A DNA stretch of 64,000 bases from contig CAVPAE010000001.1 of the NCBI GenBank assembly GCA_963701455.1, positions 15,549 to 79,548 of the forward strand, read 5' to 3'. The translations under genes and the position numbers were made by a program. The notes beneath the pieces were generated by a model. It did no database searches and had not been told where the DNA came from. It saw only the letters and a list, made by a program, of their open reading frames with translations. The DNA is from an uncultured Gammaproteobacteria bacterium. Lineage in GTDB: Bacteria; Pseudomonadota; Gammaproteobacteria; UBA9214. This document shows positions 38,525 through 63,339 of the stretch, piece by piece (the stretch's first letter is position 1; each line of letters starts with the position of its first letter).

Positions 38525-38578
38525 ATTTGCAGTTCATCCCGTAAGACAGCTGCCGTCCCGCCGTCTGGTTGCGTTGTA

Positions 38579-43194: not shown

Positions 43195-43208
43195 AACCGT
43201 GTCCTCGC

Positions 43209-44801: not shown

Positions 44802-44920
44802 TACCATCCGCCTCGACTGAACCTGCACGGCCCGGCCCGGTTTTGCCACGGGCCGAAATCCCGCTCCCGGAGACCCTGCCGCAGCACCTCTCCGACCCCG
44901 CCACAGTCCGGGGCGACACA

Positions 44921-44953
44921 TGTTACTCTAATATTAACCTAATACTATCCTAA
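44921..44953. promoter_or_regulatory. Three tandem 11-bp direct repeats in the divergent CNNM / ppk1 promoter
   Basis: TGTTACTCTAA TATTAACCTAA TACTATCCTAA. Confidence 0.6.
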
Positions 44954-45008: not shown

Positions 45009-47285
<2,277 letters not shown>

Positions 47286-47356: not shown

Positions 47357-47833
47357 ATGACGTCAAAGCAATCCAAACAGCCGATCCTGGTTCCGATCGA
47401 TTTCTCCCCCAATTCAGAATCCGCACTGCTGCAGGCGGCTGAACTTGCCGAAGCCCTGCAGGCACCAATCACCGTGCTTCACGTCGTGCATGACCTCACC
47501 AGAACCCCGGGTTACGACACCATGAAGGGCATGAAGAAGCAATTGCGCCGCATGGAGGATGTCGCCAGTGATATTGCGCAGGAGTACATGCAGGTTATTC
47601 AGAAAAAGTATCCGGATCTCGGCGCCCTGCACAGCGCTGAAACCCTGCTGGTCGTCGGTATCCCCGTCACGCGAATTCTGGAAGCGTCCGACAAAGTCGA
47701 TGCGCGCATGATCGTCATGGGCAGCCAGGGGCGTACCGGACTGTCGCACGTACTGCTGGGCTCGAAGGCCGAGCAGGTGGTCCGTCTGGCCAAGGTCCCG
47801 GTCATGATCGTCAAGGACAGACGCAAGAAATAA
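47357..47833 (+). CDS. Universal stress protein
   Basis: ILVPIDFSPNS, VLHVV, IVMGSQGRTGLSHVLLGSKAEQVVR. Confidence 0.93.
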   Translation: MTSKQSKQPILVPIDFSPNSESALLQAAELAEALQAPITVLHVVHDLTRTPGYDTMKGMKKQLRRMEDVASDIAQEYMQVIQKKYPDLGALHSAETLLVVGIPVTRILEASDKVDARMIVMGSQGRTGLSHVLLGSKAEQVVRLAKVPVMIVKDRRKK

Positions 47834-48082
47834 CCATATTCTTGCCGCACCAAAACAGGATTGATCAACGACTGCTACATCCTCCGTTCTGTGAGCAGGG
47901 CATGCCGGAAAAAAACACGTTCCCGGCACCCTGTCGCTGCAGGAGCAGGACAATCCAGCAAGGGTGTACTGCAGGAACATTCCCGTAACGAAGCGTTGAT
48001 CGGGATCGGTGGTAAAAAATTTCAGGCTGAAAATTCCAGCCGTACTGGCGCGGCACGACCCGCCTGATTGAAGGAGACCCTA

Positions 48083-49882
48083 ATGCATAACGACTTCAGC
48101 CTTGTTGCTGCCACGAAAAATGTACCCGGATTGCTGCTGCTGGCCTGTGCCGCCATGGCCGGACTGGTAGCCATGCCGGCGTTCGCCGAAACAGCGGATG
48201 CCCAGGTCATGGACTGGTGGACCATGAGCATGCAGCTGTTTGGCGGGCTGGCACTGTTCCTGTTCGGCATGGAGCAGATGGCGGACGCACTCAAGGCCGT
48301 CGCCGGTGAACGCATGAAGGTCATCCTGGCGAAACTCACCACCAACCGTTTCATGGGCGCGGCTACCGGCGCCTTCGTCACGGCTGTCATTCAGTCATCG
48401 TCGGTCACCACGGTACTGGTCGTGGGCTTCATCACCGCGGGTCTCATGTCCATGTCCCAGTCGGTGGGCGTCATCATGGGCGCCAACATCGGCACCACCA
48501 TCACGGCACAGATCGTCGCCTTCAAGGTTACCGAGCTGGCATTGCTGATGATCGCCGTGGGTTTCGGCATGCTGTTCACTTCCAAACAGGAAAAGATCAA
48601 GCAGTACGGTGGCATGATCATGGGTCTGGGTATGGTCTTCTTCGGCATGAGCGTCATGAGCGATGCCATGAAGCCATTGCGCAGCTACCAGCCGTTCCTT
48701 GACCTGATGACGAGCATGGAAAACCCGCTGGTCGGCATCCTCATCGCGGCGGCATTTACCGGGCTGGTCCAGTCCTCATCGGCCACAACGGGTATCGTCA
48801 TCGTCATGGCCAGCCAGGGCTTCATCACCCTGAATGCGGGTATCGCGCTTGCCTTCGGCGCCAATATCGGCACCTGCGTAACCGCGATGCTGGCCGCCAT
48901 CGGCAAGCCCCGGGAAGCGTTGCGAGCCGCCGTGGTACACGTGCTGTTCAATGTCTTCGGCGTGTTGCTGTGGGTCGGGTTTATTCCCTACCTGGCGGAA
49001 TTCGTCACCCTGATGTCTCCCGCCCATCCGGAACTGAGCGGCATTAACCGTCTGGCTGCGGAGGCACCGCGCCAGATCGCCAATGCCCATACCGTGTTCA
49101 ATATCGCGAACACCCTGATCTTCATCGGCTTCACCAGCCAGTTCGTGCGCCTGGTGGAAAAACTGGTTCCTGACAGGCCACTGGAAGATCTGCTCATTGC
49201 ACGACCCAAGTACCTGGACGAGGAACTCATCGCCACGCCGTCACTGGCGCTGGAACGCGCACGCATGGAAATCGGTCACATGGGAGGCCGCGTGCTGGAG
49301 ATGCTGGAGCGCATCATGCCGGCTATCACCACCGGCAACCGCAGCGCATTGAAACAGGTTGCCAAGATCGATGACGAGGTCGATATCCTGCATGGGCACG
49401 TCGTCACCTACCTGGGGCGCATCAGCCAGAAGGCCCTGACTGACGAACAGACCCGGGAACTGCTGCATCTCATGGGCGCCGTGAACGACCTGGAGAACAT
49501 CGGTGACATCATCGAAACCGACCTGGTACTGCTTGGGAACAAACGCATTGAGCAGGACGTATCCATCAGTGAATCCACCCGGGCCGTACTGGAGAACCTG
49601 CACGAGACGATCACGCTCACGGTTGAACTGGCGCTGAAGGCCGTGGCGGACTACGACGAGAAGGCCGCACAGGAAGTGATCGCCAGGAAAGGTGACATTA
49701 CCCAGCTTATGGAATCAGCCGCCATGCATGAAGCCAAGCGCCTGGTCGCCGAGGAACCCAACCGGCTTGCCGCCTATACGCTGGAAATGGATATCCTGGA
49801 GAAACTGAAACGCATCTATTATTTCGCCAAGCGCATGTCCAAGGCGATCATGCCCGCAGAACTGGCGGAGCGAGACAACTAA
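48083..49882 (+). CDS. Na+/Pi cotransporter family protein with PhoU-like C-terminal domains
   Basis: GGLALFLFGM, duplicated QSSS motifs, GANIGTT / GANIGTC, AHTVFN, DLENIGD. ATG at 48083 follows AAGGAG. Confidence 0.92.
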   Translation: MHNDFSLVAATKNVPGLLLLACAAMAGLVAMPAFAETADAQVMDWWTMSMQLFGGLALFLFGMEQMADALKAVAGERMKVILAKLTTNRFMGAATGAFVTAVIQSSSVTTVLVVGFITAGLMSMSQSVGVIMGANIGTTITAQIVAFKVTELALLMIAVGFGMLFTSKQEKIKQYGGMIMGLGMVFFGMSVMSDAMKPLRSYQPFLDLMTSMENPLVGILIAAAFTGLVQSSSATTGIVIVMASQGFITLNAGIALAFGANIGTCVTAMLAAIGKPREALRAAVVHVLFNVFGVLLWVGFIPYLAEFVTLMSPAHPELSGINRLAAEAPRQIANAHTVFNIANTLIFIGFTSQFVRLVEKLVPDRPLEDLLIARPKYLDEELIATPSLALERARMEIGHMGGRVLEMLERIMPAITTGNRSALKQVAKIDDEVDILHGHVVTYLGRISQKALTDEQTRELLHLMGAVNDLENIGDIIETDLVLLGNKRIEQDVSISESTRAVLENLHETITLTVELALKAVADYDEKAAQEVIARKGDITQLMESAAMHEAKRLVAEEPNRLAAYTLEMDILEKLKRIYYFAKRMSKAIMPAELAERDN

Positions 49883-50088: not shown

Positions 50089-50511
50089 TCAGGCAATATC
50101 GCTGCCGTCCGGCCGGGGGAAATTCTCCCGCAGGTAGGCAGCGAAATAGCGACACACATCCATGCTGGTGAGCACCCCGGCAAGCCTTTCCTTGCGAGTG
50201 ACGATGACCGCATCGATATGCCGCTCCGCCATGGCCTGCAGCACACGCTCGAGTGGCGCATTGATGTCGACGACGCAGGGATCCGGGACATAAACATCCC
50301 GGACCAGCAGATTTTCCGGCCGCACGTCTGCAGCCAGTCCCGCTGACATTTCCCTGTCGCTAATCAGGCCCACCGGCCGGTGTTCCTGGACGACAGGCAG
50401 GTGATGAAACCGGTGTGTTTCCAGCAACTCCCCGGCCTTTTCCAGGGGGGCATCCAGTTCCACCGCGTAGGGGAACGGTGTCATCAGTTGTTTCAGCAGT
50501 GGGACTTTCAT
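50089..50511 (-). CDS. Stand-alone CBS-pair protein
   Basis: LMTPFP, FHHLPVV..GLISDRE, IDAVIVT...GVLTSMDVC. Confidence 0.88.
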   Translation of the reverse strand: MKVPLLKQLMTPFPYAVELDAPLEKAGELLETHRFHHLPVVQEHRPVGLISDREMSAGLAADVRPENLLVRDVYVPDPCVVDINAPLERVLQAMAERHIDAVIVTRKERLAGVLTSMDVCRYFAAYLRENFPRPDGSDIA

Positions 50512-50590
50512 GGCTTGCCTGCCAGAACGGACTCGCACTGCGACAGTGGCGACGCGTTCCTGTAGCCAGCAGCAGGAGATGTCACCCGTC

Positions 50591-50866
50591 TCATTTTGAG
50601 GAAACCCTCAGGGGCTTCTTCTTTTTACCCAGCTTCTCTTCCACCTGCCAGCTGATCCGGATACTGATGCGATCGCGGTCTTCTTCCTGGGCAGCGGTCA
50701 CTTTCATGTGCAGCAGACCTTCCGGGCGCATCACGATCTTGTCGTCCCCGTCACTGAAAGACACCTTGCCTTTGGCGAGACCAGCGGAAATGGCCGCCAT
50801 GATTTCCTGTATCGAGGCCGCATCCTGCAACGATTCGTGCCTGAAACTCTTTTTACCCTGTCGCAT
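50591..50866 (-). CDS. Amphi-Trp domain protein (GAK-associated)
   Basis: 91 aa: FRHESLQD..SIQEIMAAISAGLAKGKVSFSD...ISIRISW; amphipathic helix, beta strands and terminal Trp; GAGGA RBS. Confidence 0.82.
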   Translation of the reverse strand: MRQGKKSFRHESLQDAASIQEIMAAISAGLAKGKVSFSDGDDKIVMRPEGLLHMKVTAAQEEDRDRISIRISWQVEEKLGKKKKPLRVSSK

Positions 50867-50909
50867 AAATGCATCCTCTGGTTGGCCCGGACTTGCCTCG
50901 CGGCCACGG

Positions 50910-52241
50910 TCAGCGCAGCAATGATTCCGGCTGGAATAACTTGATGTAGGGATAATCAGTACTGATCCCCATAACAACCCTGTCGGGATGGAAGATGGTT
51001 ACCGCGGCGCCCTGCCCCTTCAGGCCATCCCTGCGGCGCGTGTTGCGATCGATCGTGGCATCACATTCAAAGTTCAGCAAGCCCTTGCGCAGCATGATCC
51101 GCTGCCCGTGGTGCTGGTTGACGTGACCGTGCACGATCACCTGAATCCCCTTACTGTGTATCAACCGGGTCCCGCGCTGCGTCAGCGGTCTGTCCGCATC
51201 GCGATACTTGGTACGCACGATGTTCGCCACCGGCCCGTAGTAAAAATCATACAGGTCCTGCCGGAGCTGCTCCTGGAACAGCCGGTTGAGATGCTTGATG
51301 CCCTTGTCACTGATCAGCGCCGCACTGCGGTCATCCAGCCCGGCGTGGATGAACAGGAACGAGCGCTCCCGGTGAACGGCCTTCATCCGCCGGTAGAACC
51401 AGTGGAATTCCCCCTTGGGGTGAAGGAACAATTCCTGCCATTTCCGTGCAGCTGCATAGACCATGCGCAGGGACAGCCCGGCACGGGTGCAGTTTTTCTC
51501 GAACCCGTCATATTTCTTCTGCATGCGCTGCATTTCACGCTGCAGCTGCTGTTCATGCATGTCCCAGCGTGCCAGCTGCGGGAATTCCCTGAACCAGCGC
51601 TTGCGGGGAAACAGCTTGCGGCGGCAGGTGCGGCTGTCAGGAATACCTTGCAGCGCCTTTTTACCCTGCAGGTATTCGTCACAAATCTCCTTGAGGAACG
51701 GGACGGCCTTTGGTCCCATGCGAATGAAGAAATGCTCGGTCCGCGGATCCGGCTCCAGGTCCAGTGAGCGGATGCCGACGAGCATGCGGATATCATGGTT
51801 GCCGGCCAGCAGTTTCACTTCGGCTCCGGCATCCATCAGCATGCGAAGCATGCGCAGCAGGCGCAGGCTGCTGGGACCCTTGTCGAAGCAGTCGCCGCCG
51901 ATGAGAAAACACGCCTTGCGCCCGGCCCTGGTGAGCTTGAAGTCCTTGTCACGGGGTCCCGTCTTGCTGAAACCGCCCGATGCCACCAGTGATGCGATGA
52001 ATGCATCGGTGTCCGCGTGCAGGTCCGAGAAGAAGTACACTGTCCGCTTTGGCCAGCGCCACGGTTTCCCGTCTATCGCCTTGCGCAGCTCTTTGGCGAG
52101 CACTCCCCGGTGACTGCGCCCCTTGCGCACCGACTTGTATTTCCCCAGCAGCCACAACTGGCTTGCTTCCGGCAGCCGGGCATCTATCCATTTGAGTCCG
52201 TGATAACGGGGCAGGTCTGTATGCCGGGCAGCTGCTTTCAT
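50910..52241 (-). CDS. Calcineurin-like metallophosphoesterase
   Basis: SDLHAD, GGDCFDKG, AGNHD, FIHAG, VHGH. Confidence 0.88.
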   Translation of the reverse strand: MKAAARHTDLPRYHGLKWIDARLPEASQLWLLGKYKSVRKGRSHRGVLAKELRKAIDGKPWRWPKRTVYFFSDLHADTDAFIASLVASGGFSKTGPRDKDFKLTRAGRKACFLIGGDCFDKGPSSLRLLRMLRMLMDAGAEVKLLAGNHDIRMLVGIRSLDLEPDPRTEHFFIRMGPKAVPFLKEICDEYLQGKKALQGIPDSRTCRRKLFPRKRWFREFPQLARWDMHEQQLQREMQRMQKKYDGFEKNCTRAGLSLRMVYAAARKWQELFLHPKGEFHWFYRRMKAVHRERSFLFIHAGLDDRSAALISDKGIKHLNRLFQEQLRQDLYDFYYGPVANIVRTKYRDADRPLTQRGTRLIHSKGIQVIVHGHVNQHHGQRIMLRKGLLNFECDATIDRNTRRRDGLKGQGAAVTIFHPDRVVMGISTDYPYIKLFQPESLLR

Positions 52242-52245
52242 TGCA

Positions 52246-52950
52246 TCAATCCAGTTCCGCGGCGTCTTGCGCCCTTACCTTCCAGTCGCCGCCGACATGA
52301 CACCAGTTGCCGTCCGACCGGCATTCGATGAATACCGGGCGACCATGATACATGCTGAGTTGGGCGATTTGTTCGAACTCAAGTACCCCGAGGTGCCAGG
52401 CAGCGTGGCGCATGGCAGCGCCGTGACCGACAAACAGTTTCAGTCGCGGGATATCCGGCATCGCTGCTGTTACGGCAATACGCTGCCGCAGATGCGCGGC
52501 CACCCGCTCACCCGCCTCGGCGAGAGACTCCGCCCCCTGCAATGGCAGGCGGTAATGGCTGTCCGACTTCCAGCCTTCCGGCAGGTCGGGAAAACGCGGA
52601 TCACGCTGAATGATGTCCTCGATCTGCGCCACGCTGAGGTTGGCGGCAGCACCGACGCACCGCTCCGCGAGCGCGTCGAAACTTGTCAGCGCAAAACCGG
52701 CTGGCAACAGGTCCGCCAGCTCGTCCGCGATAATCCGTGCGGTCTGCCAGGCCCGGAGCATGCGGGAAGTGTCGATACCGGGCTCCGGCTGCCAGCCGTT
52801 CCGGACACACGCCTCGCGGAGCATCACCGCGGCCGCGCGCGCCTGCTGTTCACCCGCGGCATTCAGGGGAAACGGCTGATGGGCACTGGGGGTATTCGGT
52901 AACTGCGCGTAGTCACCGTGCCGAATCAGGGCGGCGATCAGCCTTGCCAT
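52246..52950 (-). CDS. Histidine phosphatase family protein
   Basis: LIRHGDY, RAWQTA, LAER, VGHGAA. Confidence 0.88.
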   Translation of the reverse strand: MARLIAALIRHGDYAQLPNTPSAHQPFPLNAAGEQQARAAAVMLREACVRNGWQPEPGIDTSRMLRAWQTARIIADELADLLPAGFALTSFDALAERCVGAAANLSVAQIEDIIQRDPRFPDLPEGWKSDSHYRLPLQGAESLAEAGERVAAHLRQRIAVTAAMPDIPRLKLFVGHGAAMRHAAWHLGVLEFEQIAQLSMYHGRPVFIECRSDGNWCHVGGDWKVRAQDAAELD

Positions 52951-52975
52951 GCCATTCTCACCTCCGGGACCTGTC

Positions 52976-53944
52976 TCAGCCTGCCTGCAACCGTGACACC
53001 AGTGCCGCGACCAGCGGCTTCAGCTCCGCCTGTCGCAGGCGCTGCTGCGCGACTTCCGGGGTCACCCACTCGCGGCCGCGATGCTGTTCTTCCCATTCCT
53101 GCTCCGGGATAATGCGGGTGACTTCCATGGGAAACACCTCGACCGTACAGGTCGCACCCCACTTTTCGTAGCGATAGCTGCCCAGCGCCTCCTCCGCGAC
53201 CTGCCCCTCGACGCCGGCTTCCTCCTCCGCCTCCCTGGCCGCCGATTCCTGCGGCGTCAGCCCCGGGTCCTGGATTCCCTTGGGAACCACCCAGTGCTTG
53301 CGCTGGCTTGACGACACGATCAGGATCTCCGGCCGGCCGTCCTGCAGGCGGTAGGGGATCACGGAAGACTGGGTGTAGTAATAGGCCGGCCGGTCACGGC
53401 GTTCCGGACCATCGGGAAACGGGAACGGGAATTTTTTCGGCAGCTCACCGGGACGGGTGATGCCAAGGAGTTCCGCGGAACCCGCGTGCAGGCCCTGCCA
53501 GTCATCCGGCATTGCCAGCCTGGCCAGCGTGGCGGTCGGCAACAGCTTGCCGTCCGCGGGATAGGGTATTGCTTCATGCGCCAGGTAAACCAGCAACTCC
53601 TCCAGTCCCGGATTGTGCCCCACCAGCATAACCCGCTGTGCATTGCCCGGGCAGTCGGCAAGCACTTGCAGCAGGTCACCCGTCATGGCCTCGTAGACCG
53701 CCTGTTCCCGGTGTATTTCCCGGGAACCGAGGCCCATCGCCTTGCAGGCCTTTTCGGCGGTAACAATGGCACGCTCCGCCGGCGAACTCACCACATGGTC
53801 GGGGCGCAGTCCCTGTTGCAGCAACCAGACACCGACCCGCTGCGCACCGCGTTTCCCCCGGTCTTTCAGCGGCCGCTGGAAATCATCGGTGCCGGCCTCC
53901 CAGTCGGACTTGCCATGGCGCAATATCAACAGTTCACGTGTCAT
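52976..53944 (-). CDS. SixA-like histidine phosphatase fused to a DIPP/Ap6A-type Nudix hydrolase
   Basis: RHGKSDW...SSPAERA..T...VGHNP, then EILIVSSSQRKHWVVPKG...SAAREAEEEAGVEG...EWEE. Confidence 0.85.
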   Translation of the reverse strand: MTRELLILRHGKSDWEAGTDDFQRPLKDRGKRGAQRVGVWLLQQGLRPDHVVSSPAERAIVTAEKACKAMGLGSREIHREQAVYEAMTGDLLQVLADCPGNAQRVMLVGHNPGLEELLVYLAHEAIPYPADGKLLPTATLARLAMPDDWQGLHAGSAELLGITRPGELPKKFPFPFPDGPERRDRPAYYYTQSSVIPYRLQDGRPEILIVSSSQRKHWVVPKGIQDPGLTPQESAAREAEEEAGVEGQVAEEALGSYRYEKWGATCTVEVFPMEVTRIIPEQEWEEQHRGREWVTPEVAQQRLRQAELKPLVAALVSRLQAG

Positions 53945-53963
53945 GCCGCCTCACCCCCGTGCG

Positions 53964-55059
53964 TTAATTCGAAACCAGCAGTTCATCCAGGCAGATTCTT
54001 GCAAGCGCGTCAAAATCGATCCTGCCGCTGACCTCGTAGACAGCCACGCCCTGCAGTGCATCCAGGTAGGCCTGCGCGTCGAACTCCGCGTCATCCCGGT
54101 GAAAGCTGCCGTCCGGGTACTGGTAAAACGGCCCGGGCGATTTCATGATCGCGGCCAGCAGGTCGCGGCGATTCTCCAGCGTTACCGGCTCGACCCTGAG
54201 CGCCGCGTCGCTGTCACGGTGCCAGTTCAGCACCAGGTAGCCCCCCAGCGGTGCCTCGGTGACAACCCGACCGGGACCATAGACCTGGTCCATGTGCACA
54301 TCGTACTTGTCCTCCAGGTGCCAGAGTTCCGCAGCCGGCATCGCCAGCAGTGCCGCGCGCTGGTCAGCCGGGATCAGCCCCTGCAACCGGGCATTGTGAA
54401 CGATGGTACCGGGATTGACGCGCGGCAGCTTGGGGATGCCCACCGCGCGGGTCTGCCCCGCATCCCTGCGCACGAACAGGCGATCATTGGTCAGGTAGCT
54501 GATCTCGTCATGCTCCAGCAGGTGCAGCATCAGGGTTGACTTGCCGCCACCGGAAAATCCCGCAATGCCGAAGCCGCTGCCGCGGTAGACCAGGCCGGCG
54601 GAATGACAGATCAGCCAGCCACGGTGCTGCAGCCAGTTCATGTACTGTGCATTGATGAAATTGATGACCTGGTTGTCGTATTCCAGGCAGGGACCGGCCG
54701 CGATCCGCTGCGTTTCACTCTGCAGGAACACCATGCCGGTACGCACCTTGCGCACCACCCGCCCGCCGGGCACGTCGAAATAGGAATCCTTGCGGCCGGT
54801 CTTGCCGGGTTCCCGCTGCCAGTCGACAAAATCGATACCGGTATCCGGCGCCTCGCGCTCAATGGCAATGACTTCCATGTCCGGCTGCTGCGCTGCCTGC
54901 CGGGACATGCGAGAAATACTGCCGCAGGCCGGCGATCACTGCCGCGGAGTTGGAACGCACCTGCAGCGTGCAATCCCCGATGGCCAGCGACAGCGTATCG
55001 GCACACAGCTGCGCATCGCCCTGCAGCAGGCCGGCGATCGATTTCACATCATGGCTCAT
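53964..55059 (-). pseudogene. HprK-related kinase B (GAK system), split by a +1 frameshift near 54900
   Basis: N-terminal 54859..55059 and C-terminal 53964..54908 join with one extra base (3x365+1 nt); CHSAGL, Walker A GFSGGGKST, TNDRLF, PKLPRVNPGT, EDKYDV. Confidence 0.82.
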
Positions 55060-55955
55060 GCCTTCCCCCTTTCCAGTTCGTTCAGTACATAGTCAACATA
55101 CAGACCGGCGGCATCGATACCAATCCCTTCGTGGGCACCACGAAAACCGCCAAACGCGGACACCTCGAACACAATCGGTCCCGCAGGGGTTTCCGCCACG
55201 TCCACCGTGGTGAAATCCATGTCGAACAATGCCTGGGCACGCTGCGCCAGGTCGACGATGTCATCCGCGGGTGTGCAGGCCGCGTAGCGGCCACCACTGT
55301 TAATCGTGGTATTCCAGGCCTCGCCCTGACTCACGCGGGCATAGCTCCCGAGGTAGTTGCCGCCGAGAAAGACCATGCCCATGTCCTGCCCCGGCAGTTC
55401 CACCATCTGCTGGATATACATCATCGGGTTGTCACGGTGGAAATCGCGCACCGCCTTCTCGATCCTGGCAGTCGCGTGCTTCGCCTTGATAACACACATA
55501 CCACGGGCCTTGGTGGAATACAGCGGTTTGAACACGGCACGGCCGAAATCGTGCACCGCCTCGATCGCGGCCCCGACATCCTCGGTCACGCGTGTGTGGG
55601 GCATGGGAATGCCGGCATTGCGCAGCGTGACCGTGCAGCTCAGGCGGTCAATCAAACGCAGGATATTCTCCGCCCGGCTGAATACCCGCACCCCGGCCTG
55701 TTCGGCCACCCGCAGCAGTTCCAGGCGATCCAGGGTATTCGGGCTGTAGCTGGCACTGATCTTCTTGACGATCAACGCATCCAGCCGGCACAGATCATGT
55801 TCCCCGTAGCGCAGACTGCCACTGTCCAGATCCAGGCAGACGCCTGCCATGTCGATCACCAGGCGATACCCGGTCAGCCGCTCGACCGCGTCTGCCAGGA
55901 CCTCGGTGGACCACTTCCCGGGAATGCCCACCACACCTATTTTTATATCAGCCAA
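55056..55955 (-). CDS. GAK system ATP-grasp enzyme (RimK-related)
   Basis: TTG start overlaps the upstream stop, with GGAGA RBS. KIGVVGIPGKWSTEVLAD, IDRLSCT, FKPLYSTKARG, YIQQMV, WNTTINSGG, TTVDV, FEVSAFGGF. Confidence 0.88.
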   Translation of the reverse strand: MADIKIGVVGIPGKWSTEVLADAVERLTGYRLVIDMAGVCLDLDSGSLRYGEHDLCRLDALIVKKISASYSPNTLDRLELLRVAEQAGVRVFSRAENILRLIDRLSCTVTLRNAGIPMPHTRVTEDVGAAIEAVHDFGRAVFKPLYSTKARGMCVIKAKHATARIEKAVRDFHRDNPMMYIQQMVELPGQDMGMVFLGGNYLGSYARVSQGEAWNTTINSGGRYAACTPADDIVDLAQRAQALFDMDFTTVDVAETPAGPIVFEVSAFGGFRGAHEGIGIDAAGLYVDYVLNELERGKA

Positions 55956-57594
55956 CGAAGATCTCCCTGACAGGGACCCGGAACGATTTTTCCTGGCCGG
56001 GCTCGGTCGCCAGTACCTGCTCCAGCAGGTAGCGGGAACGCATGAACATCGCACGCGCCAGGGATTTGTCGAGAATAAAGCGGGTCGAGGTTACAAAGGA
56101 ACGCGCCAGGCCCAGTGCCAGGCGAATCTCGAAAGTCCGGTCTCCGGACTTGTCCGCGAAATCCGCCGAGAATCGGTAGAAGTCGCGGCTCAGTTCCAGT
56201 ATCCGCCGGCGCAGCGGCAAATCGAGAATCTGCAGGCGGTAGTTGGAAACCATGAACACGGAAACATCCTGCACGTAGTCCATGTAGCGGGAACGGTGCA
56301 GGTCGATGAAGTTGATCCTTTTCTCAACGGGATCGTAGATGATGTTGTCCACGTTGAAGTCACCGTGGATATAGACCGAGAACGGCGCGGAAAGCTGTGC
56401 CTCACGCGCCAGCGCCTGCTTGACCAGGGAATTGAATGCCGTGACTCGCCGGCCACACAGGCGGATATCACCCTGCCTGAATTCCGGGTGGATGCTGTAG
56501 ACATCATCCAGCCGCCTGGCAAGCTGGCGCATGTAGTTTGCGCAGACAGGTTTTTTGGTATGGGTCTCACGCCAGACCGATTCCAGCGTCTGGTTCAGCC
56601 TGCCGAGGGTTTCCCGCAGCAGCCCGCGGGACTCGTGCAGCAGAATCTGCTCAAAGGTCAGCCCGGCAAGGTGTTCGATCAGCAGGGCCGCCGATTGCCG
56701 GCGCTTGTGATAGGAAAGTATCCGCGGCGCCAGCCCCGGATAAATCTCGTGCCAGTTTTCCAGCCCCTGGCGTTCTTCCTTGAGCTTGCGTTTCTGGCCG
56801 TCCTTGAAGATGGCCACATAGCCATCGTCGTCGCTGTTCTGGGTCGTGATCCCGGAGATGACGCTGCCCGAGCGGGTTTCGGCGATGGGTTCAATAACCA
56901 GGCTGTCACCGGCATCATCGACACCCAGGTGTTCCATCGAGGTCTGCAGCGAATGGTAGCGGTCGCTGTTGACAACATGCCCCAGATTGACGGAAATGAC
57001 CGCTTCGCTGATATTCAGCAGGGTGTCACCCATCTGCTCGATGCAATGCGAAACCAGCAATGCGGCAATCAGATCCTCGGTCGCCTTGCTGTTGCGCTTC
57101 AGGTCCCGGGTATATTGCTTGCGCAGCTTGCGGCAGGCCTGGTCGAGGCGGGGTTTGACGCGCCCGATCTTCAACGCCAGCGGCGTATCGCTGTTGCGAA
57201 TGGCGGGCTCGATACGGCCGATTGCCTGACTCATCCAGCCCAGCATCGGCCGGTAGGCCTGCGGGCGCAGGCAACGGCGGTCCTGCAGCTGTTCCAGCTG
57301 CTGAATGCAGTCACGGCACAATTCCGTCAGGCGTTCCAGGTCCGTGGCGATTGATTCAAGCGCCCGCAACGAAGCGACATCACTGTCGCCGGCCTTGCGC
57401 AGCCGGGAAATCCGCTCAAGACAGCTCTCGTGTATTCTCAGCTTGAGGTTGTAGGCATAGCCGCCGCGATCAAGAATACGCTTCGCCAGGGTGTTGGCGG
57501 GCTCCCTGAAATAGGTGCGCAGATTGGCAATCTGCGACCCGGACTCGGCCACCAGAAAACGCAGGTTTTCACGAATATTCCTGGGCAGGCGCAT
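55948..57594 (-). CDS. PhoU-like domain fused to an APH/choline-kinase-like phosphotransferase (GAK-associated)
   Basis: PhoU-like helical repeats (DLERLTELC; CIEQMGDTLLNISE), then ETRSGS, IFKDG..KLKEE, IHGDFNVDNI, IDLHRS. Confidence 0.85.
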   Translation of the reverse strand: MRLPRNIRENLRFLVAESGSQIANLRTYFREPANTLAKRILDRGGYAYNLKLRIHESCLERISRLRKAGDSDVASLRALESIATDLERLTELCRDCIQQLEQLQDRRCLRPQAYRPMLGWMSQAIGRIEPAIRNSDTPLALKIGRVKPRLDQACRKLRKQYTRDLKRNSKATEDLIAALLVSHCIEQMGDTLLNISEAVISVNLGHVVNSDRYHSLQTSMEHLGVDDAGDSLVIEPIAETRSGSVISGITTQNSDDDGYVAIFKDGQKRKLKEERQGLENWHEIYPGLAPRILSYHKRRQSAALLIEHLAGLTFEQILLHESRGLLRETLGRLNQTLESVWRETHTKKPVCANYMRQLARRLDDVYSIHPEFRQGDIRLCGRRVTAFNSLVKQALAREAQLSAPFSVYIHGDFNVDNIIYDPVEKRINFIDLHRSRYMDYVQDVSVFMVSNYRLQILDLPLRRRILELSRDFYRFSADFADKSGDRTFEIRLALGLARSFVTSTRFILDKSLARAMFMRSRYLLEQVLATEPGQEKSFRVPVREIFVG

Positions 57595-57596
57595 GG

Positions 57597-58067
57597 TCAG
57601 TCGATGACGCCCATGTAGACGCCGGGGGCAGTGCTGAACCGCTGGCCGAGGAATAGCGCCAGCGAACGCGGGTAGAGCGGCATCCCCGGCAGCGCAGCCA
57701 GCTGCGCCCAGACGACCTCGACCTGGTGCTTGTCGGGGTGTTCACCGTTCATCGGGGTATAGGTGTCCGGCACCTCGCAACGAAACAGGAACTCGACCAG
57801 GTGCCGGGTGCTGGGTGGCTCGGTATCACGCTTTTTGAAATAGTCAGCCACATGGATCAAATCGTGTATCCGCACCTGCGTGCCGATTTCCTCCTGGCAT
57901 TCGCGCAACAGCGCCTGCCGCAGTGTCTCCCCAGGGTCCTGCCCGCCGCCCGGCAAGGCGAACCGCTCGCCATCCGAATACCCCTGCTTGCGCAGCAGTA
58001 ATATGCGATCATCCCGCACAATCAGTGCACGGGCTGCATTGCGTATTACCGGAACAAGATTTTCCAT
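57597..58067 (-). CDS. Nudix hydrolase
   Basis: LPGGGQDPGETLRQALLRECQEEIG Nudix box. Confidence 0.92.
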   Translation of the reverse strand: MENLVPVIRNAARALIVRDDRILLLRKQGYSDGERFALPGGGQDPGETLRQALLRECQEEIGTQVRIHDLIHVADYFKKRDTEPPSTRHLVEFLFRCEVPDTYTPMNGEHPDKHQVEVVWAQLAALPGMPLYPRSLALFLGQRFSTAPGVYMGVID

Positions 58068-58223
58068 TGGCAGCTTCCGCTACTGGTTTCGGGCAGGGCC
58101 GTAGTATACCAGCGCGCCCGGTTGCAACCCGGTGGACAAGGGTTACGCCGGCTTGCCACAACAGATATTGTGGAACACACCGATATTTACAGGTATATAC
58201 AGGGAATATAACGCAAATCCGCC

Positions 58224-59426
58224 ATGCTATCTAACAAAAGCATCAGAATTACACGTACCGCCCAGCTACCTGATCCGGTACGTATCAGTCGCTACGCGAA
58301 GGCGCCGGAACTGGGGCCGCGCATGCTGTTATTCAGTGGCGGTTCCGCGCTCAACAAGGCCAGCAGGATTCTCAAGAACTATACCCACAACTCCATCCAC
58401 ATGGTGACGCCGTTTGACTCCGGCGGCAGTTCCGCGAAACTGCGGCGGGCCTTTGCCATGCCTTCAATTGGCGACCTGCGCAGCCGGCTGATGGCACTGG
58501 CGGATGAAAACATCACCGGACAACCGGAGGTGTACCGGCTGTTTACCTACCGGTTCCCCGCGCAGGGGAAACCAAACAAGCTGCTGGCGCGGCTGGATGC
58601 CATGATCGAGGGCCAGGATCCACTGGTACATGCGATTCCCAACCCCATGCGCCGCCTGATCCGCAACCAGCTGGGGTTCTTCCGTGAAGCCATGCCCGCC
58701 GACTTCGACCTGCGGGGCGCCAGTACCGGCAACCTGATTCTTGCCGGTGGTTACATCAACAACCACCAGCATCTCGACCCGATCATTTTCCTGTTTTCCA
58801 AACTCGTCGGCGTGCTGGGCACGGTGCGCGCAGTCGTGAATGACAACCTGCATCTCGGCGCCGAACTCGAGGACGGCAGCGAGATACTCGGCCAGCATTG
58901 CCTGACCGGCAAGGAAGTCGCACCCCTGGTATCACCGGTCAAACACCTGTTCCTGAGTGCCAGCCAGGACAGGCGGGAGCCGGCCAAAGCGGAGCTCCGC
59001 AAGAAAAACAGGAAGCTCATCAAACAGGCCGACCTGATCTGCTACCCGCCGGGAAGTTTCTACACCAGCCTGATCGCAAACCTGCTGCCGCAGGGTGTCA
59101 GCCCCGCGATTGCCGCCTGTGACAGCCCGAAGATCTATATCCCCAACCTTGGGCATGACCCGGAGCAAATCGGCATGACGCTGGAAGGCTCGGTGCATAC
59201 CCTGCTCGATTACCTGCACGCAGGCGTTCCGGATGACTGCCCGGACCGGGAACTGCTGAATTTTGTTCTTATCGACAGCAAGCGCGGGCATTACCCGGCG
59301 TGCGAATCGCTGCAGAGCGTGCGCAAACTCGGCATCCAGATCATCGACACCCGCTTGATCAGCAGTGACAGCGCACCCTATTACGATGCCGGGCTGCTGG
59401 TTGCCGCCCTGCTTTCGCTCACCTGA
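58224..59426 (+). CDS. GAK system CofD-like (YvcK/UPF0052 fold) protein
   Basis: FSGGSAL, VTPFDSGGSS, GDLRSRL, GASTGNLILAG, ADLICYPPGSFYTSLIANL, YIPN. Confidence 0.88.
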   Translation: MLSNKSIRITRTAQLPDPVRISRYAKAPELGPRMLLFSGGSALNKASRILKNYTHNSIHMVTPFDSGGSSAKLRRAFAMPSIGDLRSRLMALADENITGQPEVYRLFTYRFPAQGKPNKLLARLDAMIEGQDPLVHAIPNPMRRLIRNQLGFFREAMPADFDLRGASTGNLILAGGYINNHQHLDPIIFLFSKLVGVLGTVRAVVNDNLHLGAELEDGSEILGQHCLTGKEVAPLVSPVKHLFLSASQDRREPAKAELRKKNRKLIKQADLICYPPGSFYTSLIANLLPQGVSPAIAACDSPKIYIPNLGHDPEQIGMTLEGSVHTLLDYLHAGVPDDCPDRELLNFVLIDSKRGHYPACESLQSVRKLGIQIIDTRLISSDSAPYYDAGLLVAALLSLT

Positions 59427-59428
59427 TA

Positions 59429-60682
59429 TCAGGATTCCGCCGCGGCATCCTCATCTGTCGGCCGACGGATATTGGTCTTGTTGATGCTGCGGCTGGAAGC
59501 CTCGAGAATCGTCACCTCGAGGTCGTCGATAAGGAATTTTTCACCCGCCTCGGGAATACTCTCCGTGTGGTTCAGCACCCACAGGCTGACGGTATCGGTG
59601 GGCTTGCCAGGCAGTTCCATATCGAAATACTCCTCGACCAGGCGCAACTCGGCGCTGCCATCGGTGATGATTTCATCCCCGGAAACTTCCCTGAGGATTT
59701 GCGGCGTGATATCGCTTTCGTCGTAGATCTCACCCAGCAGTTCTTCCATCAGGTCCTCAAGTGTAACGATACCGCGCACTTCCCCGTATTCGTCCACCAC
59801 GATGGAGAAATGCCGGTTGCGCCGCCGCAGCATCGCAAGCAGGGCATCGATGTTATGGTACTGGGAAACGAACAGGGGCTTGTGCCCGATTTCCTCCAGG
59901 GTCACGTCCAGCCGGTCGTTCGCAATGGCATTCATCATATCCCGCATGTACAGAACCTTGACGATATTGTCCGGCTGATCCATGAACAGGGGAACACGTG
60001 AATAGGGTTCACTGATCAGCAGTGGCAGGGCGGTCGCAACGGACAGTTTGCAATCCAGGGCGAAGATCTTGCCCTTGGGCGTCATGACATCCCTGACCTT
60101 CAGGTCATTGAACCCGAAGACCCGCTCGATGATGTCACGCTCATGGTGGTGAATCTCGCCTTCGGCAACACCGTGGCCCAGCATGCCGATCAGCTCTGAT
60201 TCGGTAACCGTCGGTTCTTCCTGCCCGCCCGTGAGACGGTGCACCCAGGTCGTGAATTGTCCGAACAGCCAGACAAGGGGGTACATCAGCCGCATGAACA
60301 GCAACAGGGGCGTGGCGGCAACCAGGGAAATGCGCTCCGGGTAGCGGGTCGCCAGGCTTTTCGGGGTGATCTCGCCAAACACCAGGACAAACAGGGTCAA
60401 CAGGCCCACGGCGATACCGGGCCCGGCACTACCGAATTCCCGCGTGGCGATGACTGTCGCCATGGCGGAAGCCCCGATATTGACGAGGTTGTTGCCAATC
60501 AGGATGGTCGTCAGCATGCGCGACGGGTCTTTCTTGAGCTCGTACAGGGCAGCCGCCCCGGCGCGCCCTTCCCTGACCAGGGCTTCCACCCGCGCCCTGG
60601 ACAGTGCTACCAGTGCAGTCTCGGACCCTGAAAATGCTCCGGAAAGCACCAGCAGGACCAGCAGTGCGGCAAGCTCACCCAT
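59429..60682 (-). CDS. CNNM/CorC transporter, canonical subtype C
   Basis: FSGSETALV, GNNLVN, GEITPKS, YSRVPL, VVDEYGEVRGIVTLEDLMEE. Confidence 0.92.
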   Translation of the reverse strand: MGELAALLVLLVLSGAFSGSETALVALSRARVEALVREGRAGAAALYELKKDPSRMLTTILIGNNLVNIGASAMATVIATREFGSAGPGIAVGLLTLFVLVFGEITPKSLATRYPERISLVAATPLLLFMRLMYPLVWLFGQFTTWVHRLTGGQEEPTVTESELIGMLGHGVAEGEIHHHERDIIERVFGFNDLKVRDVMTPKGKIFALDCKLSVATALPLLISEPYSRVPLFMDQPDNIVKVLYMRDMMNAIANDRLDVTLEEIGHKPLFVSQYHNIDALLAMLRRRNRHFSIVVDEYGEVRGIVTLEDLMEELLGEIYDESDITPQILREVSGDEIITDGSAELRLVEEYFDMELPGKPTDTVSLWVLNHTESIPEAGEKFLIDDLEVTILEASSRSINKTNIRRPTDEDAAAES

Positions 60683-60724
60683 TAGCCTGATGCCTGGCAG
60701 ACAGGAAAATCATATCCGTGCATA

Positions 60725-61966
60725 CTACCACTGAACCCTCACTTCCTCGATTGCACGTTCCGAGCCGCGCTGGATAACAAAGGTAATCTTTTTGTACCGG
60801 ACACGGGTCCCGACAACCGGCACATCCCGCACCCGCTCCAGCAGGAACCCGGCCAGGGTTGCATATTTCCCTTCCGGCAGTTCGATATTCAGGGCTTCCG
60901 CGAGGGCCTCCGGCTCGATGCGGGCACTGGCCAGGTAATCCCGTTCTCCCAGCTTGCGCAGCCACCCGGTCGGGTTCTCCCGCACGTCGAACTCATCAGA
61001 AAGATCCGCGACGATTTCCTCGAGAATATCCTCAACCGTCACGATACCCTCGGCACCGCCGAATTCATCGACGACAACCGACAGCAAGTGGCGCTCGCGC
61101 TGCATATCCTGCAACAGGGTTTGAATGCTCTTGGAGCCGGGTACGTAGTCCACCGGCCGGATGTAGGCGGCTATGGGTTCCTGCGGATCAACGCCCAGCA
61201 GTTCCAGGGCATCGAGCATACCCACGATCCGGTCCACCCGTTTTGAGTAGACCGGCATCCGCTTGTGTGCCTTGGTCCTGGCAAGCCGCATGGCCTCGCC
61301 GCAGGATGCACCCTGCTCAATGCCGACCACGTCTATAAGCGGCATCATGATTTCAGCGACGGTTGTCTCCTCGAAGTCGAACAGCCTGCGGATCATCGCC
61401 TTCTCGCTCGTGTCGATATCCCCGCCCTCGGTTGACATCTGCATCAGGGCGAAAATTTCCTCGCGCAAGGTGAAGGGGTTATGGCTCCCCGTCCGGTCTC
61501 CCACCAGCTTCGCGAGCAGACGCGTCAACAGACTGAATACGATCAGGATCGGGTAGAACACCCAGGAAAAAAACTTCAGCAGAAAAATGACCCGCGGGGT
61601 TATGACATCCGCGCGTTGCTGGAAAACGCTCTTGGGCACGATTTCACCGAACACCCAGATCAGCGGCGCCACCAGCGCCACGGCCAGCCAGCTGCCGGAC
61701 TCACCGAACAATTGCAGCATCAGCGCCGTTGCCATGGTGGTGTTCGCCACCACGGCAATATTGGTACCGACCAGGGTAGTGGAAAGCAGCCACTCGGGCT
61801 TGTTGAGCATATCCAGCGCCAGCTTCGAACCCAGCGATCCTTTCGCCGCATCATGCCGCAGTTTCATGCGATCGGCGCTGACAACACCCATCTCGGACCC
61901 GGAAAAGAAACCCTCGGCAACGAGGCAGGCAACCATCAGGCCGAATGTCACCAGAATATCGTTCAC
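60725..61966 (-). CDS. CNNM/CorC transporter, subtype B
   Basis: FFSGSEMGVV, GTNIAV, GEIVPKS, VVDEFGGAEGIVTVEDILEE. Confidence 0.92.
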   Translation of the reverse strand: MNDILVTFGLMVACLVAEGFFSGSEMGVVSADRMKLRHDAAKGSLGSKLALDMLNKPEWLLSTTLVGTNIAVVANTTMATALMLQLFGESGSWLAVALVAPLIWVFGEIVPKSVFQQRADVITPRVIFLLKFFSWVFYPILIVFSLLTRLLAKLVGDRTGSHNPFTLREEIFALMQMSTEGGDIDTSEKAMIRRLFDFEETTVAEIMMPLIDVVGIEQGASCGEAMRLARTKAHKRMPVYSKRVDRIVGMLDALELLGVDPQEPIAAYIRPVDYVPGSKSIQTLLQDMQRERHLLSVVVDEFGGAEGIVTVEDILEEIVADLSDEFDVRENPTGWLRKLGERDYLASARIEPEALAEALNIELPEGKYATLAGFLLERVRDVPVVGTRVRYKKITFVIQRGSERAIEEVRVQW

Positions 61967-63339
61967 TGTCCAGACTCCCTGGTTGACGGGTCGCCGACGG
62001 GTTCAGCCGGGGCAGCGGCTTCCCGTCCGTCACCGGGAGTCAGCACCTCGGCCGCTGCAGAATCCTCGTTGGCCGCGTCTGTTCCCTTTTTCACGGACAG
62101 CATCATGATCCGGTTGCCCTCAACTGTTTCCACCAAAAATTCCAAATCATCAATCAGCAGTTTTTCGCCAACGACCGGCAGCTCACCGAACCGGTCCAGC
62201 ACCAGCCCGCCAACGGTTTCAGCTGAGTCCTCAGGCAGATGCTGCAGGAATTCCCGGTTAAACTGCTCTATTGGCATCCCCCCTTCGATGCGCGTACTGC
62301 CATCCGTCAACTTCCGGTATGGCATGACGGACACCGAATCAGAGGCGCTGGGAAGATCGCCGAAGATACATTCCAGCAGATCCTCCATGCTGACCAGTCC
62401 GGTCACGCCGCCATACTCATCGACGACCAGGGCGAGTGACAGCTTGCGCTTTCTGAACGTATGAAACAGTTCGGCCGCCAGTTTGGTTTCGGGCACGAAA
62501 TACGGGGAACGCAGCAACTGCCGCTTGCCCTCATCAAGCCGTGACAGCTCATCCGGCTCCAGTCCGAGCAGATCCCGCGCGTAGAGAATGCCGAGAATAT
62601 TGTTGCGATTTTCATGGAAGACCGGCACCTTGGTGCGCCGGGTGCGCCGCAGTTCCTGCAGCATGTCCTCCAGTGACCTGTCCGCAGACAGGAACAGCAC
62701 ATTCGACCGGGGCGTCATCACGTCCTCGACGGTCATGTCACCGAACTCGAAGATATGGTCGATGTAGCGCGCCTCGACCGGATTCAGCACCCCTTCCCCG
62801 ACCGCTTCCCGGGCCAGGGTCCGCACCATGTCCTCGGTCACGATATTTGCACGCGAACGTTCCTTGCCGACAATCAGGGTGGTCACCCAGTCCGCCACCT
62901 GCCGCACCAGCCAGCGCAGCGGGCTTATCAGGGAGGCAAACAGGGCGATGTATTTGCTCTGAAAGGCAGCGAAGGCGACATTGTTCCTGATAGCCAGGGT
63001 TTTCGGGGTGATCTCTCCCACCAGCAGCAGGATTGGCACCATGATGAACAGGTTCACAAACTTGTTCTCGGCACCCAGCAGCTGGATAACGATCGCTGCC
63101 GAAATCACGGATGCGGCCACGTTCACGAATTCATTGCCAATGAGAATGGTCACGATCAGGCGACGCGGCTGGCTCAACAGCCGTTCAATCTGCTTCAGGC
63201 CGGCGTGACCATCACGCCGCATCTGTTCCAGCTGGATCTTGCTTAGCGAAAACAGGCTCGTTTCGGCACTGGAGAAGAAACCCGAAAACCCCATCAGGAC
63301 CACGAACAACGTCACTTCAATCCACAATGTAATATCCAT
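61963..63339 (-). CDS. CNNM/CorC transporter, subtype A
   Basis: FFSSAETSLFSL, GNEFVN, GEITPKT, MTPR, VVDEYGGVTGLVSMED. Confidence 0.92.
   Translation of the reverse strand: MDITLWIEVTLFVVLMGFSGFFSSAETSLFSLSKIQLEQMRRDGHAGLKQIERLLSQPRRLIVTILIGNEFVNVAASVISAAIVIQLLGAENKFVNLFIMVPILLLVGEITPKTLAIRNNVAFAAFQSKYIALFASLISPLRWLVRQVADWVTTLIVGKERSRANIVTEDMVRTLAREAVGEGVLNPVEARYIDHIFEFGDMTVEDVMTPRSNVLFLSADRSLEDMLQELRRTRRTKVPVFHENRNNILGILYARDLLGLEPDELSRLDEGKRQLLRSPYFVPETKLAAELFHTFRKRKLSLALVVDEYGGVTGLVSMEDLLECIFGDLPSASDSVSVMPYRKLTDGSTRIEGGMPIEQFNREFLQHLPEDSAETVGGLVLDRFGELPVVGEKLLIDDLEFLVETVEGNRIMMLSVKKGTDAANEDSAAAEVLTPGDGREAAAPAEPVGDPSTRESGQ

Follow-up and report, generated by a model that had tools for sequence, protein, structure and literature searches.

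A proteobacterial, hydrolase-rich variant of the GAK system with a possible phosphate-gated modification cycle on its amphi-Trp protein

GAK (Grasp, Amphi-Trp, Kinase) is the name under which a gene cluster is recorded in TIGRFAMs/NCBIfam. The operon at positions 50089-59426 of a 64,000-nucleotide stretch of DNA, referred to here as the window, from an uncultured gammaproteobacterium of the UBA9214 lineage (assembly GCA_963701455.1, contig CAVPAE010000001.1, positions 15,549 to 79,548 of the forward strand) is typical of a proteobacterial, hydrolase-rich and hitherto undescribed variant of this database-named, uncharacterised system. We propose, with a probability of roughly 0.4, that the system would operate a phosphate-status-gated covalent modification cycle on Ser12 of the type-A amphi-Trp protein, as suggested by sequence conservation and structural models. 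An earlier note on this DNA had regarded the gene set as undescribed, which the existing database name contradicts. In the literature searched, no functional or biochemical publication was found, in any form, on the GAK system, amphi-Trp or the HprK-related kinase, and the sole trace is a proteomics table for Dissulfuribacter in which an amphi-Trp protein ranks with the most abundant ones.

Membership in the GAK system and layout of the operon

Four GAK families score above their NCBIfam cut-offs in this one locus, namely the type-A amphi-Trp protein (50591-50866, minus strand, 91 residues; TIGR04354, 62.1 bits, cut-off 31), the HprK-related kinase B, which is frameshifted in this assembly (53964-55059, minus; TIGR04355, 336.7 bits, cut-off 200), the ATP-grasp enzyme (55056-55955, minus, 299 residues from a TTG start; TIGR04356, 454.7 bits, cut-off 300, the match covering the full profile, 1-287) and the divergent CofD-like protein (58224-59426, plus, 400 residues; TIGR04357, 543.2 bits, cut-off 340; also PF01933). 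A protein with the XXXCH domain (TIGR04358) finds no match in the whole genome or in 80 related proteobacterial loci and was therefore rejected as a part of this locus. Anti-phage defence was likewise rejected, as the PADLOC models gave nothing beyond generic Nudix matches to PDC-S07.

The remaining minus-strand genes encode a stand-alone Nudix hydrolase, which is the first gene of the operon (57597-58067, 156 residues; PF00293, 67.7 bits), a PhoU domain fused to an APH-fold kinase (PhoU-kinase; 55948-57594, 548 residues; PF01895 and PF01636), a SixA-type histidine phosphatase fused to a DIPP/Ap4A-hydrolase-like Nudix domain (SixA-Nudix; 52976-53944, 322 residues; PF00300 and PF00293), a branch-1 histidine phosphatase (His_Phos_1; 52246-52950, 234 residues; PF00300, 59.9 bits), a metallophosphoesterase (50910-52241, 443 residues; PF00149) and a CBS-pair protein (50089-50511; PF00571, two repeats), which is co-oriented and lies outside the conserved set. 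The nine tightly packed minus-strand genes and the divergent CofD-like gene described in the earlier note were thus recovered at these coordinates, and all of its domain calls were upheld by Pfam and NCBIfam scans. The operon and the CofD-like gene are separated by 156 nt (58068-58223), and spacing within the operon ranges from an 8-nt overlap up to about 80 nt: the TTG start of the ATP-grasp gene, a sequence reading, overlaps the PhoU-kinase stop by 8 nt, the ATG of kinase B overlaps the ATP-grasp stop (ATGA), and the other gaps measure 2 to about 80 nt. A scan found no terminator-like sites in the operon above shuffle expectation, and its division by internal terminators or promoters was rejected on that ground.

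The catalytic motifs had been described as intact, and the patterns searched (Nudix box; RHG with a second His; D-x-H, GD, GNHD and HGH; Brenner motif; P-loop; NDR) occur in the window, and most or all homologues have them too; all operon genes except kinase B are full length with the searched motifs present. The absence of an HPr gene near the operon was also confirmed, the sole HPr-like gene of the genome lying on contig 7.

Conserved core across phyla

Searched against 1.84 billion representatives, the profile of kinase B recovers 360 representative clusters at E <1e-30. The most distant representatives, 30-40% mutually identical, were aligned, and with this alignment 80 distant metagenomic loci were fetched, of which 45 are long. 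The canonical operon in these loci runs, with XXXCH optional, in the order XXXCH, an orphan 387-residue protein (d5), amphi-Trp A, PhoU-kinase, ATP-grasp, kinase B, CofD-like and amphi-Trp B. XXXCH is considered accessory since it is present in only 11 of the 45 canonical loci, whereas the PhoU-kinase is a constant partner in all lineages sampled. The core across phyla therefore consists of the type-A amphi-Trp protein, the PhoU-fused APH-fold kinase, the RimK/MptN-like ATP-grasp enzyme, kinase B with its PEPCK/HprK fold and the CofD/YvcK-like protein.

Relatives of the Nudix, SixA-Nudix, His phosphatase and metallophosphoesterase of the window occur in none of the 80 distant loci, and neither d5 nor XXXCH is encoded in the proteobacterial loci. 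Being absent from all distant loci, the hydrolases cannot be what defines the function of the core; their five domains are non-core and look, from their distribution, like a lineage-specific replacement of d5, the mutually exclusive sets being consistent with an exchangeable eraser role. The d5 orphan (about 387 residues; loci L088-L155) belongs to no Pfam or NCBIfam family, carries the His-rich motifs HWHPE, PHPE and DDCH and is the near-constant first gene.

Within the Proteobacteria, an alignment of the ATP-grasp enzyme was scanned against species-representative genomes, which yielded at least 331 species with a relative, and 80 loci were fetched. These are mostly gammaproteobacterial metagenome-assembled genomes (Sedimenticola, tubeworm endosymbionts, Ectothiorhodospiraceae and Thiotrichaceae), with Terasakiella and Thalassospira as alphaproteobacterial carriers; three carriers among the fetched loci are cultured, namely Catenovulum sediminis, Onishia taeanensis and Terasakiella brassicae. 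Kinase B was found in 7 of 400 evenly drawn Gammaproteobacteria (about 2%). Three loci labelled 'Halobacteria archaeon' or 'Ilumatobacteraceae' (L014, L016 and L079) encode an ATP-grasp enzyme 70-78% identical to gammaproteobacterial ones, L014 and L016 also share phosphate-related neighbours, and the three are probably mis-binned contigs.

Genes were counted in 42 long loci (at least 18 kb) of Gamma- and Alphaproteobacteria. The PhoU-kinase, the ATP-grasp enzyme and kinase B are present in all 42, followed by amphi-Trp (40), SixA-Nudix, His phosphatase and metallophosphoesterase (38 each), the stand-alone Nudix (35) and the CofD-like protein (32). The order of the window, from Nudix through PhoU-kinase, ATP-grasp, kinase B, SixA-Nudix, His phosphatase and metallophosphoesterase to amphi-Trp, is near-universal in these loci, with the CofD-like gene divergent. 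Since this eight-gene order and the divergent CofD-like gene are kept in 32 to 42 of the 42 loci, the arrangement is far beyond chance. Loci that have lost genes drop hydrolases, while the PhoU-kinase, ATP-grasp and kinase B are always retained and amphi-Trp nearly always.

The CBS protein had been suggested as a sensor of the system, a role that does not stand: its gene is a local insertion found in 0 of the 42 long loci, without a counterpart in the 80 related loci, and it is missing at the same position, between the amphi-Trp and Na/Pi genes, in the closest relative (locus L004). Unrelated CBS-pair genes are found near CNNM and CitMHS transporter genes in tubeworm-symbiont loci.

The amphi-Trp protein as candidate substrate

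The amphi-Trp protein of the window (10 kDa) has an N-terminal FRHESLQD motif that includes Ser12 and a Lys-rich C-terminal tail. In 22 aligned proteobacterial sequences, the invariant residues are F8, S12, G33, D39, P48, K55, A58 and W73. The distant loci encode two amphi-Trp types, of which type A carries the N-terminal motif of the window protein and type B, encoded after the CofD-like gene, is without it. Across these loci the type-A motif reads F-x-[H/Y/F]-x-[S/T]-[LIVYT]-[QEV]-D, the hydroxyl position being Ser in 27 and Thr in 1 of the 28 motif-bearing copies, and 25 of the 28 genes lie directly upstream of the PhoU-kinase gene at a distance below 200 nt. The E-S-L-x-D segment resembles the D-S-L-D site of acyl carrier proteins.

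The AlphaFold2 model of the protein (mean predicted local distance difference test, pLDDT, 84) places the motif, at a pLDDT of about 95, in an extended N-terminal segment, followed by a helix at residues 16-32 and four strands; the Lys-rich tail is of low confidence. Foldseek found no matching fold among PDB structures (best E 1.5), and an HPr-like fold, for which HPr structures were included in the search, was rejected by the same value. The C-termini of amphi-Trp proteins are not conserved, for which reason C-terminal ligation in the manner of RimK or LysW was rejected; His10 as a phospho-acceptor for SixA was also rejected, because Tyr or Phe frequently takes the place of the motif His. The pre-helix hydroxyl, which is conserved across phyla, has the look expected of a phospho- or phosphodiester acceptor.

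The earlier note had offered amphi-Trp as a scaffold or substrate. The substrate role is favoured, because a Ser or Thr occupies the motif in every copy examined and the type-A gene stands just upstream of the PhoU-kinase gene in the canonical operon; a scaffold is less likely. The same reading draws on amphi-Trp being the only non-enzyme part of the core, single-copy in this genome and without a PDB fold match, and on its well-modelled pre-helix motif.

Proposed modification cycle

In the cycle that we propose, the PhoU domain would read phosphate status and gate its fused kinase, and one or both kinases would phosphorylate Ser12. Alternatively, the kinases might make a phosphorylated precursor, which the CofD-like protein would transfer from a nucleotide-activated donor to Ser12 as a phosphodiester, and the ATP-grasp enzyme would then add an amino acid as a cap, in the way that CofF and MptN cap the tails of cofactors. 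In either form of the amphi-Trp modification cycle, the DIPP-like Nudix, SixA, His-phosphatase and metallophosphoesterase domains here, or d5 elsewhere, would remove the group or destroy its donor, and modified or unmodified amphi-Trp would act, via its Lys-rich tail, on polyphosphate granules or on phosphate or magnesium flux.

Protein modification is supported by the solved relatives of the ATP-grasp enzyme (LysX, ArgX and RimK), which modify small proteins. The Ser residues phosphorylated by HprK-family kinases are those of HPr and of the precursors of lasso peptides (PMC9266682), and SixA enzymes are protein phosphohistidine phosphatases (PMC7948535). The link to phosphate is supported by the PhoU domain together with the PPK1, Na/Pi-PhoU, CNNM and CHAD neighbours of the operon and the PhoR/PnpS-like, PhoU, PstA, PhoH and CorA neighbours in other phyla, which are described below.

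A more specific version, which we hold to be improbable, is that amphi-Trp is a new small carrier or signalling protein with Ser12 as the site of a phosphate, of a pyrophosphate or of a group that is phosphodiester-linked and capped by an amino acid. This group would be installed by the CofD-like protein from a nucleotide-activated donor, in chemistry like the phosphopantetheinylation of acyl carrier protein, and GAK would be a phosphate-status pathway for polyphosphate granule turnover and phosphate or magnesium export.

Core enzymes

The PhoU domain of the fusion kinase, judged by its profile matches, is genuine: it scores 43 bits on PF01895 (gathering score 23.5), and its profile matches PhoU crystal structures at E ~1e-10 over residues 22-204, or 18-219 for the matches to 1xwm and 4q25. 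The kinase motifs HGDFNVDN and IDL are kept in 71-72 of 72 homologues. The ATP-grasp enzyme is the most conserved part of the system (57% identical to the distant-locus representative); its next-best families are MptN (150 bits, cut-off 350), RimK (107.7, cut-off 143.4) and LysX (97, cut-off 276), while its closest solved relatives are LysX, ArgX and RimK. In place of the usual ATP-grasp E-x-N it carries E-V-S, which is shared by all 80 close homologues and by 30 of the 35 distant ones. The CofD-like protein scores 132 bits on the Pfam CofD family, and in NCBIfam it matches just two models, the GAK-specific one and, at 115 bits against a cut-off of 196, the YvcK-type one. Its closest solved relatives are YvcK-type UPF0052 proteins, and its FSGG[ST] motif is kept in 47 of 47 homologues.

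Kinase B has no Pfam family and no significant sequence match in the PDB. Its structure was modelled with AlphaFold2 on the intact L004 protein (pLDDT 93.6; predicted template-modelling score 0.92). The model matches ATP-dependent PEPCK over its full length (about 410-430 aligned columns, template-modelling (TM) score about 0.5, E 1e-7 to 1e-8), while for the HprK/P catalytic domain the match is to the C-terminal domain of the model, with a target-normalised TM score of 0.55-0.59. Residues at least 95% conserved in 137 diverse kinase B representatives include the P-loop, N191-D192-R193 and H152, as well as numerous basic residues of both domains; K90, R100, K104, K210, R213, K251 and K306 are invariant.

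Hydrolases and a free small-molecule alternative

The stand-alone Nudix hydrolase has the canonical Nudix box GX5EX7REUXEEXG, and its closest solved relatives are MutT/NudI-type enzymes. In the SixA-Nudix protein, residues 5-147 find their best solved match in the SixA structure 2rfl, the domain scoring 53.4 bits on TIGR00249, under its cut-off of 74.5, with RHG in 60 and GH[NE]P in 61 of 66 homologues. Residues 193-320 are closest to DIPP1/2/3, NUDT2, Ndx1 and Ddp1 (E 2e-8 to 1e-4); in this fused Nudix box E-A-x-E-E-A-G is at least 90% conserved and the GX5E glutamate is replaced by Leu, His or Met. Enzymes of this kind cleave the polyphosphate chains of Ap(n)A, of inositol pyrophosphates and of polyphosphate itself (PMC8064635). 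The separate His phosphatase shows weak CobC/dPGM similarity and conserved RHG and GHG motifs, with no significant PDB sequence match. The metallophosphoesterase is weakly similar to ApaH and to the CthPnkp phosphatase, and is longer (443 residues against 264-286 in those matches); DLHAD, GNHD and HGH are found in 59 of 59 homologues and GD-x-[FV]-D-[KR]-G in 41 of 59. The cycle of writers and erasers put forward in the earlier note is broad and partly supported; it fits these findings, including the kept motifs, the DIPP-like Nudix, the ApaH-like metallophosphoesterase, the PhoU domain and the phosphate-related neighbours, except that the hydrolases are not part of the core.

The same enzymes could instead serve a free small-molecule pathway, in which the kinases, the CofD-like protein and the ATP-grasp enzyme would assemble a phosphorylated metabolite, possibly activated by a nucleotide and capped with an amino acid, the hydrolases would degrade it, and amphi-Trp would bind or relay it; candidate products are a phospho-hydroxyacid conjugate like the tail of F420 or methanopterin, or a nucleoside oligophosphate signal. 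Such a pathway is itself doubtful and nearly as likely as the amphi-Trp modification cycle. YvcK-type proteins, to which the CofD-like protein is nearest, bind nucleotide-sugars, and the 57% identity of the ATP-grasp enzyme between distant loci would be expected for a fixed small substrate. The MptN score of that enzyme, the two-domain PEPCK-like fold of kinase B with its seven invariant Lys and Arg residues, the DIPP/Ap4A-like relatives of the SixA-fused Nudix domain and the ApaH similarity of the metallophosphoesterase point in the same direction. However, a metabolite would leave unexplained a universal, non-enzymatic protein of 90 residues with a Ser/Thr motif, whose gene abuts that of the PhoU-kinase; no nucleotidyltransferase for an activated donor is seen in the operon, and E-V-S for E-x-N suggests that the ATP-grasp chemistry may differ from that of MptN and RimK.

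Several points weigh against a modification of amphi-Trp. Most accessory enzymes have small-molecule relatives (CofD/YvcK, MutT- and DIPP/Ap4A-like Nudix, CobC/dPGM-like and ApaH-like). The best-scoring characterised ATP-grasp family, MptN, is a small-molecule ligase, and kinase B matches PEPCK over its full length, with many invariant basic residues in both domains, which lean toward a small anionic substrate, a phospho-protein also being possible. The unconserved C-termini make ligation in the RimK or LysX style unlikely, the motif His, often replaced, is not a SixA target, and the invariant Ser might serve in binding, not as an acceptor.

Genomic neighbourhood and the link to phosphate

Directly outside the operon on the plus strand, NCBIfam and Pfam identify PPK1 (45009-47285), a universal stress protein (Usp; 47357-47833) and a Na/Pi symporter that itself contains a PhoU domain (48068-49882); L004, L006, L014 and L022 are among the loci in which this trio likewise flanks the operon. 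The opposite flank in the window holds three CNNM/CorC-type transporter genes in tandem (59429-63339, minus; PF01595, PF00571 and PF03471) and the start of a gene for a CHAD-domain protein (63546-63998, plus), which continues past the window end. The CHAD call is based on 45% identity over 148 residues to the N-terminal part of c10, a cluster of neighbouring genes with a representative that reaches 208 bits on PF05235 (CHAD). Two further CNNM genes lie upstream of ppk1, so that ppk1 and the GAK operon are surrounded, over about 22 kb, by five paralogues of these putative magnesium transporters (41934-44921 and 59429-63339), an unusual local expansion. One of them, the CNNM/CorC gene at 41934-43194 (minus), is split over overlapping frames, with CNNM in the open reading frame (ORF) 42319-43194 and the CBS and CorC_HlyC domains in ORF 41934-42773.

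Among 58 proteobacterial loci, the neighbours counted are CNNM (21), CHAD-domain proteins (15), a ParA-like ATPase (13, beside CHAD wherever that gene was called), Usp (12), Na/Pi-PhoU (11), an additional His phosphatase (8), PstS-like proteins (7) and PPK1 (7). In the distant loci, the neighbours are a PhoR/PnpS-like kinase (7 loci), PhoU, PstA, PhoH and CorA. The association with phosphate genes is therefore seen in several phyla and in different arrangements, though many of the loci are interrelated and some copies are without such neighbours. Phosphate assimilation has been linked to cytoplasmic magnesium homeostasis (PMC7980370). The pair of CHAD and ParA/MinD-like genes flanks the GAK cluster in 13-15 of the 58 loci (L005-L073), on either side and in either orientation, and could be a dedicated system for positioning polyphosphate granules; CHAD domains bind polyphosphate (PMC6537752).

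These surroundings also bear on a direct polyphosphate machinery, which we regard as very unlikely. The hydrolases would act on polyphosphate or on phosphorylated intermediates of PPK1 or Ndk, the DIPP-like Nudix and the metallophosphoesterase as endopolyphosphatases and SixA by dephosphorylating a phospho-His enzyme, while the GAK core would tune granule turnover and phosphate or magnesium export. The position of the operon amid ppk1, the Na/Pi-PhoU transporter, five CNNM genes and a CHAD gene is consistent with such a machinery, as are the varied arrangements of the CHAD and ParA-like pair, the cleavage of polyphosphate by DIPP and Ddp1 (PMC8064635) together with the binding properties of CHAD, and the targeting of the phospho-His of Ndk by SixA (PMC12934123). 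Lys-rich proteins are described on polyphosphate granules (PMC9239181), and the tail of amphi-Trp is Lys-rich. However, the hydrolases are missing from the canonical GAK system of other phyla and so cannot define its core, many proteobacterial copies (for example in Terasakiella and Thalassospira) are without polyphosphate genes within 10 kb, and no role is left for the ATP-grasp enzyme or the CofD-like protein.

The divergent promoter region of the window contains CTGT(A) repeats about 10 nt apart (58160-58215), which lack conservation in relatives; a promoter-like TTGACT...TACAAT element stands in their place in several of the close ones. A Pho box was rejected here, as the period is about 10 and not 11 nt and nothing comparable is conserved in 38 related intergenic regions. 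Further from the operon, a CYTH-domain gene and a gene for an ATP-cone P-loop kinase (38054-39775, minus) are found upstream within the same island, each with a relative near GAK in 1-2 other loci. A 629-residue ORF (40033-41922, plus) has no family match and no relative in the 80 loci; it overlaps an opposite-strand methyltransferase gene and may be a shadow ORF.

Integrity of the kinase B gene

In the window, the N-terminal part of kinase B is read in a frame that opens with the ATG at 55059 and meets a stop at 54859, and the C-terminal part lies in the ORF 54908-53964. The TIGR04355 match accordingly spans profile positions 52-349 only, the N-terminal ~50 residues being encoded in another frame. 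Comparison with the intact 364-residue gene of L004 (88% DNA identity) locates a +1 frameshift, one extra base, near 54893. Kinase B thus reads as broken in this assembly, and this copy of the operon may be inactive.

A real frameshift in an operon that is decaying in this genome is a tentative explanation, and decay and assembly error are about equally likely. The extra base relative to L004 sits in a locally diverged, non-homopolymer stretch, kinase B is intact in L004, in a genome of the same genus (G367) and in all other loci examined, and the split CNNM gene at 41934-43194 provides a second apparent frameshift, all of which favour decay. On the other hand, the remaining operon genes are full length with the searched motifs, and two frameshifts per 64 kb of a 12-contig assembly are also expected from consensus indel errors.

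Significance

The GAK system is widespread and annotated by name in RefSeq, and nothing on it was found in the literature searched. The PhoU-kinase and the phosphate, polyphosphate and magnesium neighbours in unrelated phyla provide a concrete physiological handle, and the cultured carriers Onishia taeanensis, Terasakiella brassicae and Catenovulum sediminis open the system to genetics. Tubeworm endosymbionts, Sedimenticola and Thiotrichaceae are sulfur-oxidiser lineages whose polyphosphate cycling affects sediment phosphorus. If amphi-Trp were indeed a carrier as described above, GAK would be the bacterial equivalent, in function, of inositol-pyrophosphate/SPX signalling in eukaryotes, and might be the switch through which sulfur bacteria in sediments release phosphate.

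Comparison with known systems

Kinase B shares, in its model, the P-loop superfamily fold of HprK/P and ATP-dependent PEPCK. Its P-loop GFSGGGKST is followed 18 residues on by N-D-R, which parallels the A-D-D-R motif of HprK; however, the first Asp is replaced by an invariant Asn, no HPr gene lies nearby and no sequence-level match to HprK or PEPCK was found. As an HPr kinase/phosphorylase it gave neither a match to the Pfam family Hpr_kinase nor a PDB sequence match, and only the fold resembles.

The GAK ATP-grasp enzyme is similar over its full length to the ligases RimK, LysX, MptN and CofF, with LysX, ArgX and RimK as the nearest structures, but it scores below every curated cut-off of these families and has E-V-S rather than E-x-N. 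Unlike the substrates of RimK and LysX, amphi-Trp is without a conserved acidic C-terminus of the S6 or LysW kind.

The yvcI-yvcJ-yvcK-yvcL-crh cluster of Bacillus subtilis encodes a Nudix protein, a RapZ-like P-loop protein, the CofD-like YvcK/GlmR and the HPr-like Crh. Shared with GAK are a Nudix hydrolase, a P-loop NTPase and a CofD-like protein with YvcK-type nearest structures, and the Bacillus cluster also has a small Ser-phosphorylated protein. In contrast, amphi-Trp matches no PDB fold, HPr included, kinase B is not RapZ, and no link to the cell wall or GlmS is seen here.

Eukaryotic turnover of inositol pyrophosphates and polyphosphate (DIPP/Ddp1; PPIP5K) shares a palette with this locus, comprising DIPP-like Nudix domains, His phosphatases, ATP-grasp and a link to phosphate and polyphosphate (PMC8064635, PMC13573052). 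The likeness would be one of analogy only, since the GAK ATP-grasp enzyme is of RimK type, no inositol-kinase family match and no inositol phosphate genes were noted, and the hydrolases are missing from canonical GAK.

The closest counterpart is the GAK system itself as defined in NCBIfam, with which this locus shares four of the five families above cut-offs and the PhoU-kinase fusion as constant partner. Compared with the canonical form, it is without XXXCH, the type-B amphi-Trp protein and the 387-residue orphan; instead, it possesses four hydrolase genes with five domains, a divergent CofD-like gene and an amphi-Trp gene shifted to the operon end.

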